From Candidatus Poribacteria bacterium (GTDB taxonomy: Bacteria; Poribacteria; WGA-4E; PCPOR2b): a DNA stretch of 64,000 nt. The stretch is from NCBI GenBank assembly GCA_965218095.1, contig OZ244587.1, positions 3,328,001 through 3,392,000 on the forward strand, written 5' to 3'. Position numbers and translations under genes: made by a program. Each line of letters starts with the position of its first letter. Positions within the stretch are counted from its first letter, which is position 1. The notes beneath the pieces are model-generated. The model searched no databases, was not told where the DNA came from, and saw only the letters and a list, made by a program, of their open reading frames with translations. Positions 21,284 through 25,855 of this stretch are shown in pieces.

Positions 21284-22222
21284 TTGAGGAAATACGTTGA
21301 GGTGCTCATCGCGCTAGTCTGCATCATCGGTTATCTGAGGTGTACTCAGGATAAAACGCAGCTTGGTTGGCAGAAGATCGAATCGGGAACAGAGGCGCAC
21401 TTATACGGTGTCCACTTCGTTGACGCCAAACACGGTTGGGCGGTCGGCGCAGACGGTGTGGTTTTAGTCACAGAAGATGGTGGTTTGAAATGGAAGGTGC
21501 AATCACCGAAAAAAGCCATTTCCAAGAATGCACTCAATAAGGTCCACTTCTCTACCCCAACCCACGGTTGGTCAGTCAGTCTCAGGGGACGCATCCACTA
21601 TACAGGAAGCGGCGGCAAATCGTGGACAGAGCAACAGGGTCACACGCAGAGCGGATTACTTGACCTCTATTTTACAAGTCCAACAGAAGGCTGGGCAGTC
21701 GGTGGGAGTGGCATCATCCTCCACACGGATAATGGTGGTGGTTTGTGGAGTCGCCAAGATGCGCCGTCGGCCGGTCACTTGTGGGCTGTTCACTTCGCTG
21801 ACGCGAAGAACGGTTGGGTTGTCGGCAGGGAGGGGAAGATTCTTCACACTGAAAACGGCGGCAAATTCTGGCGTGAACAGCGGAGCAATACCGATCAACC
21901 GCTGCTGGACGTTTATTTCGTTGACCCACAGAACGGCTGGGCTGTTGGGACAAACGGGCAGGTCTTACATACAACGGATGGTGGTGCAAACTGGAGACGG
22001 CAGAAAAGTAACACACAGAAGACCTTGCGTGGCGTTGCATTCCCAGGCGCCGAGCAGGGCTGGGCAATCGGCGAAGATGGATTAATCTTGCATACAACCG
22101 ACGGTGGGCAAACGTGGATGCCCCAACCGAGTGGATCAGAAGAACACCTTCTGGACATCTGTCTGTATAAAGATCGCAGTTGGATCGTTGGGGCAAAAGG
22201 CACAATTCTACGTCTCGGTTAG
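21284..22222 (+). CDS. YCF48-related beta-propeller, exported
   Basis: 7 repeats of LxxVxFxxxxxGWAVGxxGxILHTxDGGxxW. Confidence 0.9.
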   Translation: MRKYVEVLIALVCIIGYLRCTQDKTQLGWQKIESGTEAHLYGVHFVDAKHGWAVGADGVVLVTEDGGLKWKVQSPKKAISKNALNKVHFSTPTHGWSVSLRGRIHYTGSGGKSWTEQQGHTQSGLLDLYFTSPTEGWAVGGSGIILHTDNGGGLWSRQDAPSAGHLWAVHFADAKNGWVVGREGKILHTENGGKFWREQRSNTDQPLLDVYFVDPQNGWAVGTNGQVLHTTDGGANWRRQKSNTQKTLRGVAFPGAEQGWAIGEDGLILHTTDGGQTWMPQPSGSEEHLLDICLYKDRSWIVGAKGTILRLG

Positions 22223-22676: not shown

Positions 22677-23231
22677 ATGTGTTGGAGACAGATTCGCGTG
22701 TTAAGTCTGATCCTCTGTTTTCTGGTAGTTTTGGGCTGTTCAGACGACGACGGTGACGAGATAATAGAGATTGATGAGCCAACAGTTGACAATACAACAC
22801 CCCCCGATGCAAATGAAGATTCTTCGTTACCGCTCGCGCCCAACTTTACGTTACCAGATACAGAGCTTGAGGAGGTCAGCCTCTCAGACTACGAAGGCAA
22901 GGTCGTCCTTTTAGATTTTTGGGCGACGTATTGTAAACCGTGCGAAGAGGAGATTCCGCTTTTCGTCGAACTCTATGATGAGTATCGGGGGCAAGGGTTT
23001 GAGATGATTGGTATCTCCCTGGATGATGGGCTGGACGTCGTCGATCCCTTTATTCAGAGACTGGGCGTCAACTACACCATTTTACTGGCAGTCCCTGGAC
23101 TTGTTCAGAAATATAACATACCTGGGCTACCTGCTGCGTTCCTTATTAATCGTAGGGGAAGAATTGTGAAAGTATTCGATGGCGAACAAGAAAAAGCAAC
23201 CTATGAAAGTGAGTTGAAGAAATGGCTATAA
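22677..23231 (+). CDS. TlpA/ResA-like thiol-disulfide reductase lipoprotein
   Basis: Lipobox VLGC; APNFTL, LDFWATYCKPC, GLP; RBS gaggagg. Confidence 0.9.
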   Translation: MCWRQIRVLSLILCFLVVLGCSDDDGDEIIEIDEPTVDNTTPPDANEDSSLPLAPNFTLPDTELEEVSLSDYEGKVVLLDFWATYCKPCEEEIPLFVELYDEYRGQGFEMIGISLDDGLDVVDPFIQRLGVNYTILLAVPGLVQKYNIPGLPAAFLINRRGRIVKVFDGEQEKATYESELKKWL

Positions 23232-24415
23232 GGAATAAACCGATTTATCAAGCTTTGGCACTGATCTTCCTGGGAGCTGCGCTGATTGTGTGGTCCGGTT
23301 GTGGCAGTGACGATAATCCTATAGTAACAGAAGATACACTAGACGACGATTCGACCCCTACAATCGATGATCCGACTCCCGTAGTCTTGACCGGTAGCCT
23401 GAAAGGGCAAGTGGAAACCATTGAAGGCGTACCGATTAACATCCAGGTCCTGCAAAATGGCAAAGTGATCGCCTCCACCCAAACCAATGCCGATGGAAAT
23501 TACCAAATCGATAGCGTTGAACCGGGAACTTACACCGTTCAAATCACAGCGAAAGGCTATCGAGCCGCCGACCTGACCGTACAAGTTATCGCTGATCAGG
23601 TTAAGCCACTTGATAAGGTGGCGCTTGAGGCATTAGAAATTCCTGTTTCTCACATTCGAGGACGCTTATCAGACCAAGCGACGAAGAAACCCCTTGACCG
23701 GGTTCGTGTTCAACTTATCGATGACGCGGGCAATATCCGTGAGGCGCTGACAAAGGCAACAGGCGTCTTTGAATTTGAAAATGTCCCCGCAAATCAGCCA
23801 TTCACCGTACTGATCGATCACGATGGATACGAGCAGCAGGAAATTAAAATCGATCCAGTCCCGGCCGCTGAAGCCGCAAAGATCACAAACGAACTTGTGC
23901 CAGTTCAGCAAGGGGAACAACCCCCGGTCGGTGAGGGTCTGGCAATCGGCGCGAAAGCGCCAGATTTTCGTCTGCCCGATGGGGATGGGAAGATTCACGC
24001 CCTCGCCGATTATGCGGTGGAAAAAAAGATTGTGCTGGTGTTTTATCGAGGGATCTGGTGACCGCATTGCATCAATCAACTCGGAGAGTTGCAGAAAAAC
24101 TATAAAAGGATTCGAGCAGAAGGGGCGGAAGTTATCGCGATTAGTTCGGATACACAGGCGGAGACGAGACGGACTATTGAGAAGGTCGAAAGGCGCTTTG
24201 GTGCCGAAATACGGTTTCCTGTGCTTTCCGATGCGGAGACACAGACCATCGCCGCCTATAATGTAACCGATCCCCTCAATCACCGGCTTGCACGTCCGGT
24301 GACCTACATCATCAATGAGAGCGGGACGATTCGGTGGAAGTTCCTTGATGTGCGGGTCGGCAATCGGATAGCGCCCGACAAGGTTATTGATAAGTTGAAA
24401 AAATTTAATAAGTAA
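23222..24415 (+). CDS. Selenoprotein: lipoprotein with two carboxypeptidase-regulatory-like domains plus an AhpC/TSA (Prx-like) domain, UGA at 24059-24061
   Basis: ORFs 23222-24061 and 24089-24415 are in frame and read VLVFYRGIW-TGA-PHCINQLGELQ (UxxC). Lipobox WSGC. 397 aa in total. Confidence 0.9.
24077..24091 (+). promoter_or_regulatory. Candidate bacterial SECIS hairpin
   Basis: CAACTC-GGA-GAGTTG; G-initiated loop 21 nt after the UGA. Confidence 0.7.
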
Positions 24416-24431
24416 AGGTGACAAACGAGCT

Positions 24432-24653
24432 TTGCTCGCCACTTTCAAATGTCCAATCTTCCATGTAGAGATGTATGAAAATTTCCGTATTGCCGCATTG
24501 GATATTGATCTTCTTAAAGTTGCAGCGAACATTGGTGGTAACTTGGAAATGCACGATAAACTGATTGTAGCGACCGCGCTTTATTTTGATGCGCCTCTGA
24601 TTACCAGGGACGGAAAAATCACTCAAAGTGAAATCGTAAGCACTGTTTGGTAG
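24432..24653 (+). pseudogene. C-terminal half of a PIN/VapC domain
   Basis: EMHDKLIVATALYFDAPLITRDGKI; N-terminal half absent. Confidence 0.75.
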
Positions 24654-24673
24654 CGTTAGAATTAACCAATCCA

Positions 24674-25855
24674 ATGGCAAGAACAACATCTTCAGTTAAT
24701 CAACCCGTATCAGATCCAATTGTGGAACAAATTCGAGCGGATTGCGATCAGATTTCACACATCAAAGCAACCGAGCCCCGATCGGTGAGTCGGCGGCGTT
24801 TTTTGCGTCAAACATCGCAAGGCGTGATTGGGGCGGGATTTGCCCTGGGGAGCCTATACTCAGCGACAAACAACGCTTTCGCTCAATTGGGTACGCCGCG
24901 CGGCACACTTCCAGAAGATCAGCTTCAAGATCAAGGGACGCCCGTGGTCGAAGCCACAAGTGAAAAGGCCTGGGAGGGTGATATACTCAATGAGCAGGTC
25001 GTCAGTGAGATGATCGATCGCGCGATAATGAAACTGACGGGACTCGACTCGGCGAAGGAGGCGTGGAAGGATTTTGTCCTGCCCAACGACATTGTCGGGA
25101 TTAAGATAAATCCCATCGGTGGGAAGCTGTTGAGTACGCATCGAATCATCGTCGATAAGATCGTCGATGGATTATACGGGGCGGGCGTCCTCAAAAATCA
25201 GATCATCATCTGGGATCGGTTTGAATCCCACCTGATTAACGCAGGTTACGAGATTAATCAAAGCGATCAAGGGGTGCGTTGCTTCGCATCGGACAGTCAA
25301 GGCGTTGGCTACGACGACGAAGTTTACTATGAAACCGAAAAGGATGTCGAGGTGCGCCGTGAGAACGAGAGCATCAGATCTCAATATACGAAGATACTCA
25401 CTCAAGAGGTGACGGCGATCATCAACGTTCCGGTGATGAAACATCACGGGATCACCGGCGTTAGCGGATGCCTGAAAAACCTTGCCTTTGGCAGCGTCGA
25501 TAACACCCGCCGCTTCCACTCAAATCCCCTGAATTGCAATCCTGCTATTGGCGACATTTTCGCGCACGCTATCCTGAAAGATAAAGTTGCTCTGAATGTC
25601 GTTGATGGGTTGCTCGCTTCGTTTGATGGTGGCCCCACATATGACCCCGATGGGGTGTGGAAGTATGGCGGCATCCTCATGAGTGTGGATCCAGTGGTGT
25701 TGGATCAGATCATTCTTCAAACGATTGAAGAGAAACGGAAGGAGCTCAAATTAGGGTCAATCACTCGATTGGAGAAATATATCCGCTCATCGTTCCAGCT
25801 AGGACTTGGCACGAATAACCTCGACGAAATCGATTATCGAGAAGTGAAGGTGTAG
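24674..25855 (+). CDS. Tat-exported DUF362 domain protein
   Basis: SRRRFLRQ twin-arginine motif; VGIKINP, NVPVMKHH, SGCLKNLAFG. Start uncertain. Confidence 0.85.
   Translation: MARTTSSVNQPVSDPIVEQIRADCDQISHIKATEPRSVSRRRFLRQTSQGVIGAGFALGSLYSATNNAFAQLGTPRGTLPEDQLQDQGTPVVEATSEKAWEGDILNEQVVSEMIDRAIMKLTGLDSAKEAWKDFVLPNDIVGIKINPIGGKLLSTHRIIVDKIVDGLYGAGVLKNQIIIWDRFESHLINAGYEINQSDQGVRCFASDSQGVGYDDEVYYETEKDVEVRRENESIRSQYTKILTQEVTAIINVPVMKHHGITGVSGCLKNLAFGSVDNTRRFHSNPLNCNPAIGDIFAHAILKDKVALNVVDGLLASFDGGPTYDPDGVWKYGGILMSVDPVVLDQIILQTIEEKRKELKLGSITRLEKYIRSSFQLGLGTNNLDEIDYREVKV

Follow-up and report, generated by a model that had tools for sequence, protein, structure and literature searches.

A UGA-containing gene of Candidatus Poribacteria predicted to encode an anchored and stalked Prx-like selenoprotein

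In the window, i.e., the whole 64-kb stretch of DNA analysed, two open reading frames form a single gene of 397 codons interrupted by one UGA. This codon is almost certainly decoded as selenocysteine (Sec), judging from the comparison of related sequences. Its predicted product is a lipid-anchored selenol/thiol-disulfide reductase of the cell envelope, which would be held off the membrane by two beta-sandwich spacers; the probability of this reading as a whole is put at roughly 0.6. The features of the region are listed below in window coordinates.

22677..23231, + strand: TlpA/ResA-like CxxC (CKPC) predicted lipoprotein, upstream, overlapping the start of the Sec gene by 10 nt
23222..24415, + strand: full Sec gene, 397 aa, TGA as Sec (U280), TAA stop at 24413-15
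23222..23302, + strand: predicted lipoprotein signal peptide (1-26) and lipobox Cys27; model helix 9-25, conserved C27
23303..23383, + strand: acidic Pro/Thr-rich tether, predicted disordered (28-54); pLDDT <50 over 24-50
23393..23629, + strand: beta-sandwich repeat 1 (~58-136), CarboxypepD_reg/prealbumin-like (PF13620, model)
23645..23899, + strand: beta-sandwich repeat 2 (~142-226), Cys-free (PF13620, alignment, model)
23930..24412, + strand: AhpC/TSA (Prx-like) redoxin with R276, U280, C283, R358 and P359 (PF00578, invariant columns, fold)
24059..24061, + strand: Sec codon TGA; TGA in 75/75 related sites, opposite Cys in 80 Cys homologues
24077..24091, + strand: bacterial SECIS hairpin, 6-bp stem and GGA loop, within codons Q-L-G-E-L
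24647..25855, + strand: DUF362 protein with twin-arginine signal (PF04015; TIGR01409 at cut-off), a frequent neighbour

Predicted protein and redox chemistry

The frames 23222-24061 (279 aa) and 24089-24415 (108 aa) share one reading frame, and the TGA at 24059-61, in the context FYRGIW-U-PHC, is the only one between the ATG at 23222 and the TAA. The two frames are joined as the original prediction had it. The start is backed by orthologues opening with MAI.. or an equivalent. The two beta-sandwich domains and the AhpC/TSA domain of that prediction were likewise recovered by Pfam, with PF13620 matching in two stretches (E 4e-24) and PF00578 at residues 242-372 (E 4e-32, 111 bits against a cut-off of 26). 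The AlphaFold2 model, built on a 23-sequence alignment with Sec as Cys (pLDDT 84.9), agrees: the helix of the signal is followed by a tether of low confidence, by both beta-sandwiches and by a thioredoxin fold. With its low pTM (0.53), the model does not fix how the domains are oriented.

The lipobox Cys27 is nearly invariant in the 23 aligned proteins. It follows a basic N-region and a hydrophobic helix, and the residue at -3 is Trp, which is non-canonical. Judging from the conserved Cys behind the helix, the protein is probably an exported lipoprotein, and the lipid anchor proposed earlier is predicted on the same ground. The protein holds three Cys/Sec residues in total (the lipobox, U280 and C283), the repeats being free of Cys. 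The number of repeats is 0, 1, 2 or 3 across orthologues and tandem paralogues, and the one-repeat orthologues keep repeat 2, which lies beside the catalytic domain. The tether is far longer in certain paralogues, some of which have gained long Pro/Asp-rich tethers. The same repeat recurs dozens of times in giant proteins, with up to 44 stretches in a protein of 6305 aa; the two giant repeat proteins scanned are PF13620 arrays. The top fold match of the stalk was the multi-repeat surface protein 6fwv (rmsd 24 Å), which is a likeness at the domain level only. The simplest reading of the stalk repeats is that of a spacer; alternatively, they may act as a binding element.

The redox motif is U280-P-H-C283 (UxxC), and C283 is invariant in the aligned proteins. 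In the alignment with the host's own BCP and AhpE-like proteins, R276 falls at the Pro, U280 at the Thr and C283 at the peroxidatic Cys of the peroxiredoxin motif, and P359 occupies the position of the catalytic Arg, as in TlpA. The canonical PxxxT/SxxC motif with its catalytic Arg is thus replaced by RxxxUxxC with Pro at the Arg position. R358, one residue before the peroxiredoxin arginine position, is invariant in 23/23 aligned proteins; among the 80 Cys homologues an Arg of this type was found in just 2 of the 44 in which the motif pattern matched. No NCBIfam redoxin model reached its cut-off, and the Prx models all scored far below theirs. The named selenoprotein redoxin models gave 38.8 against 120 for the SelL-related NF040769, 36.2 against 270 for PrxU (NF040737) and 24.3 against 300 for WAxxUGC (NF041054). 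TIGR00385, used as the TlpA/ResA/DsbE test, gave 21.3 against 123. The fold search placed peroxiredoxins (Bcp4, AhpE) above TlpA/ResA proteins, with an rmsd of 2.1-2.3 Å. The best sequence matches in PDB were ResA proteins, the top ResA chain itself reading CPHC, which inflates the score. A close relative of the domain, the database protein P0262 (E 8e-47), has a predicted lipoprotein leader and an active site devoid of both Cys and Sec; it is possibly a non-catalytic derivative.

Since the peroxiredoxin triad is missing, the domain most likely reduces envelope disulfides or oxidised thiols, and a reductase is somewhat favoured over a peroxidase. The domain fits the PRX-like2 type, i.e., CxxC proteins lacking the triad. 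However, in the accessible text of PMC3514251 PRX-like proteins are inferred not to be protein disulfide oxidoreductases, their mechanism being unclear, which counts against the disulfide-reductase reading.

In the proposed sequence of events, SelB would bind the hairpin and tRNA-Sec would read the UGA, after which the protein would be exported and lipidated at Cys27. The U280 selenolate would then attack a substrate disulfide or an oxidised cysteine, and C283 would resolve the intermediate into an Se-S ring. This ring could be re-reduced with electrons supplied by the membrane domain of DsbD, probably via the adjacent CxxC TlpA where it is present. The tether and the 0-3 repeats would set the reach and take no part in the chemistry.

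The enzyme might instead be mainly peroxide-reducing, with the selenolate reducing H2O2 or lipid hydroperoxides directly in the absence of the Prx triad and TlpA recycling it. Selenols react fast with peroxides, the fold is of the peroxiredoxin type (rmsd ~2 Å to BCP/AhpE), and the invariant Arg358 next to the peroxiredoxin arginine position, so rare in the Cys homologues, could be counted in the same direction. Nevertheless, Pro, Thr and Arg of the triad are each replaced, and the host genome already encodes a separate TxxU selenoperoxiredoxin of the BCP type with a predicted signal peptide. A peroxidase is for these reasons considered rather unlikely.

Neighbouring genes and candidate partners

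Overlaps between the TlpA gene and the Sec gene recur in the three relatives inspected. The original prediction had the Sec gene translationally coupled to a CxxC TlpA; the 10-nt overlap was found, and the coupling as such is suggested by this overlap only. TlpA adjoins the stalked gene in 29/35 relatives, lying upstream in 24 and downstream in 5. At E 1e-30, none of the six family f2 genomes yielded a TlpA; these genomes do have the stalked gene. Four genomes of genus g5 retain TlpA and DUF362 without it. The link with TlpA is common and not obligatory. One DsbD_TM gene (a 630-aa frame) is present elsewhere in the host genome. By analogy with envelope redox relays, electrons are supposed to pass from DsbD to TlpA and on to the Sec enzyme. 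That TlpA is the direct electron donor is a tentative suggestion, given slightly less than even odds. In several relatives, as in the window (21284-22222, + strand), a Ycf48-like beta-propeller gene lies upstream of TlpA.

DUF362 offers another role for the enzyme, which might serve specifically to mature or reactivate this Tat-exported protein, with the repeats as a docking arm. In 29/35 relatives that have the stalked gene, a DUF362 gene follows downstream at no more than 2.5 kb, and all six genomes of the TlpA-less family f2 are among them. It is, however, adjacent in 0/5 genomes of family f4 and not in G001, and it was found in 40/41 genomes, those lacking the stalked gene among them. Furthermore, paralogues occur elsewhere without DUF362, and the variable repeat count suits a spacer better than an interface. 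Such a dedicated factor is thus improbable, and the envelope reductase on a spacer is retained as the preferred reading. DUF362 itself gave no sequence match in PDB. Between the Sec gene and DUF362 (24471-24653, + strand), a 60-codon ORF resembles the C-terminal half of a PIN domain with weak Pfam hits below cut-off, and is likely a remnant. In family f2 (L088, L089), a tandem trio of Sec paralogues with 2, 2 and 0-1 repeats stands just upstream of DUF362, and these arrays have no TlpA neighbour.

Decoding of the UGA codon and the SECIS hairpin

The host genome contains selA, selB, selC and selD, all above cut-off; selB is directly followed by the 94-nt tRNA-Sec (selC), and selD carries an in-frame TGA of its own at the CGU site. 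Among 75 distinct related sites matching the motif, the codon is TGA in 75 and Cys in none. The motif required xxC plus Gln or a stop six codons on, and broken copies were counted. The sites were drawn from 30 loci of 41 genomes, 30 phylum-wide matches and 14 chosen regions, the locus search having used a query with Cys at the TGA site; the genomes behind them are kin, and the counts are not independent trials. The original prediction had named two observations that would speak against Sec, an absent sel machinery and homologues that all read TGC without a conserved hairpin. Instead, the machinery is complete and the homologues read TGA with the hairpin conserved.

The hairpin expected by the original prediction consists of CAACTC (24077-82), GGA (24083-85) and GAGTTG (24086-91), with its loop 21 nt from the UGA. 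In the accessible text of PMC13188914, the bacterial SECIS consensus includes a loop of 3-9 nt, an upper stem of 4-16 bp, a distance of 16-37 nt from the UGA, G in the first two loop positions and an energy of -7.5 kcal/mol or lower. The geometry here, with the 3-nt loop GGA, 6 bp and 21 nt, lies within these ranges; the energy of short pieces of this gene does not reach the threshold. A 31-nt piece of this gene folds at -4.8 kcal/mol, and 11/200 shuffles were equally good. Short pieces gave -4.8 to -7.0 kcal/mol, the value varying with the piece folded. Three longer pieces, reaching 44-82 nt from the UGA, did not contain the hairpin in their minimum-energy fold and were no better than shuffles. 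Many orthologues reach -9.2 kcal/mol through an added seventh pair.

Conservation of the hairpin is much stronger than its energy in this gene. The 6-bp stem and the G-led loop 21 nt downstream are kept at 75/75 related sites. All six pairs with the G-led loop were found in 54/54 genes, against a mean of 2.3 and a maximum of 8 under synonymous recoding (2000 rounds with the same amino acids and the background codons of the gene's own family). Leu at +10 is TTG in 54/54 genes as compared with 20% elsewhere. Covariation on 31 aligned sites was equalled in 1/500 shuffles and was higher than in any of the six slid controls. When the distant family f4 is counted, compensatory pairs occur at 3/6 stem positions; this family swaps whole pairs (e.g., CAGTTG-GTA-CAACTG) at the cost of an amino-acid change. 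Only 1/80 metagenomic Cys homologues has the stem with G. The same hairpin was found at 8/4602 open-flanked TGA sites of the host genome, two of the eight belonging to the Sec redoxin family. Support for the SECIS is thus far beyond chance across the relatives, weak in the single gene, and comparative in kind. Together with the sel genes and the invariant TGA, it bears out the recoding proposed originally.

Gene callers treat the TGA as a stop, and some termination at UGA is expected under low selenium. Nonetheless, if the TGA were a true stop or a nonsense mutation, the gene would be reduced to a stalk protein of 279 aa and a detached fragment of 108 aa, and the thioredoxin fold would be cut at its nucleophile. 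Such a stop is hardly credible with TGA in 75/75 sites, covariation in the hairpin and a downstream half that is still intact. It is just as hard to credit that the UGA is read as another residue, through a changed code or the ordinary-sized 75-nt tRNA with a TCA anticodon (G000:C1:4577829-4577903, - strand), which stands in a tRNA cluster and is distinct from the 94-nt tRNA-Sec: the site aligns with the catalytic Cys, and a SECIS and the full sel machinery are present. Genome-wide reassignment of UGA was rejected, since TGA is the commonest stop of the host genome, ending 536/1373 frames of >=400 codons, and the next stop codon follows at a median of 15 codons.

Short near-identical contigs of depth 2-5 occur in four runs of one sponge metatranscriptome study. 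One of them spans 24034-24184, with no change listed at the TGA; it extends just 25 nt to the left of the TGA and may be DNA. Scans for promoters and terminators gave chance level only.

Other TGA-containing genes were seen in the host genome. A second intact paralogue at ~4556622-4558025, + strand (G000:C1; L086:4623-6026), has 468 aa, three beta-sandwich repeats, a UIFC site and a hairpin with a compensatory pair. A third copy at ~4602478-4602930, - strand (G000:C1; L087), is broken: after its UPPC site a TAG interrupts the hairpin, and more stops follow. At G000:C1:4427671 (+), 3538764 (+), 6294430 (-), 2061718 (+) and 5448321 (-) lie other thioredoxin-fold genes whose redox site has an in-frame TGA, with the motifs WUPNT, YUPKD, TRGU and YTUSPF, and the Sec-type SelD; the first two are devoid of a resolving Cys.

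Relation to known selenoproteins and distribution

The catalytic family itself has long been catalogued. A Prx-like thiol:disulfide oxidoreductase selenoprotein with PF00578 and UxxC/UxxU (WP_010940744.1) is tabulated in the accessible parts of PMC13188914 and PMC9312934. 'Prx-like 1', with 225 Sec and 2,740 Cys sequences, is given as one of the commonest ocean selenoproteins in the accessible text of the ocean metagenome survey PMC2398784, which also lists its fusions to PP2C phosphatase, Secretin_N and unknown Cys-bearing domains. The present protein, matched by domain and motif, resembles the catalogued UxxC form in PF00578, the in-frame UGA and the downstream SECIS. Unlike in that form, the domain stands at the C-terminal end, behind a predicted lipoprotein signal, a tether and the PF13620 repeats, and this stalked layout is not among the fusions given in the accessible text of PMC2398784. 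By motif it is also likened to PRX-like2 (CDD cd02970), sharing FYRGxW-C/U-PxC and a CxxC-type site without the Prx triad, as far as the accessible text of PMC3514251 describes that group. The 80 metagenomic Cys homologues with RGxWCPxC are 27-37% identical to the domain; unlike the present protein, they carry the beta-sandwich repeat in 0/80 cases, and most have no Arg before the Pro.

With TlpA/ResA/CcmG (PDB 1st9, 3c71) the protein shares a predicted membrane anchor, a CxxC-type site and Pro at the cis-Pro position, whereas NF002854 gave 60.7 bits against a cut-off of 170, the fold is nearer to Prx, Sec comes first in the motif, and there are spacer repeats. It resembles BCP/PrxQ and AhpE (PDB 3hjp, 1xvw) in fold, with TM 0.86-0.88 over the target and the rmsd given above, and differs from them in having neither PxxxTxxC nor Arg at the catalytic position. 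The words carboxypeptidase and lipoprotein do not occur in the main text of the two reviews (PMC13188914, PMC9312934). No paper pairing a selenoprotein with a carboxypeptidase regulatory domain was found, and the stalked layout appears undescribed in the openly accessible literature searched on selenoproteins and Poribacteria; a paper found there on selenoproteins of Poribacteria deals with hydrogenases. The original prediction had considered the architecture as a whole undescribed. This appears to hold for the anchored, stalked, Sec-only layout of variable length and does not hold for the catalytic family and its recoding signal, which are known. Neither a new recoding mechanism nor a new fold is demonstrated.

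The named homologues belong to Candidatus Poribacteria. The profile matches 145/151 genomes of the phylum at E 1e-25, with 1-6 matches per genome, stalk-less paralogues included; these comprise all genomes of families f1-f5 and 0/6 genomes of f6-f9. By hand count, the stalked gene is present in 35/40 relatives, one copy being broken and one lying at a contig edge. At G020:C2:3547872-3549209, an orthologue with intact neighbours has apparently been disrupted, either by several stops or by a frameshift.

That annotation pipelines would split the gene proved correct: of the 117 database homologues that contain the beta-sandwich part, 114 stop at the UGA site, three earlier, and none is read through. 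The deposited name of one is 'carboxypeptidase regulatory-like domain-containing protein'. The present reading corrects a lineage-wide error, by which these genes were deposited as truncated proteins of that name or as hypothetical proteins, and which hides an envelope redox enzyme of most genomes in the order. A stalked Cys form was found neither among the database homologues nor among the metagenome Cys homologues (Cys codons only were matched, and 80/583 hits were retained). Rescanning 147 of the 150 best cluster representatives gave none either, those with the repeat and the start of the redoxin all stopping at the UGA site. A weak search of longer redoxin-domain proteins gave 12 matches and no full-length stalked Cys form. 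A word-based, insensitive scan of 185,579 named genomes returned only three weak matches, to the repeat part alone.

An exported, Sec-only layout of variable length is hereby added to a common selenoprotein family, with TlpA and DUF362 as candidate partners. With 0-3 spacer repeats plus tethers and up to several paralogues per genome, it may be speculated that Poribacteria possess a Sec-only envelope redox family of adjustable reach with its own Arg-before-cis-Pro variant, the longer forms being surface-displayed and acting on external substrates. This suggestion is considered unlikely. If it were true, the surface substrates could be, e.g., host-derived oxidants or disulfide-bonded matrix proteins, and selenium would serve the sponge symbiosis directly. 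A reversed layout is seen in genus g5 (L084:3346-4797, L085:3202-4644), where the same Sec redoxin domain is N-terminal, bears the same hairpin and is fused to a C-terminal stretch of ~300 residues whose domains match poorly.
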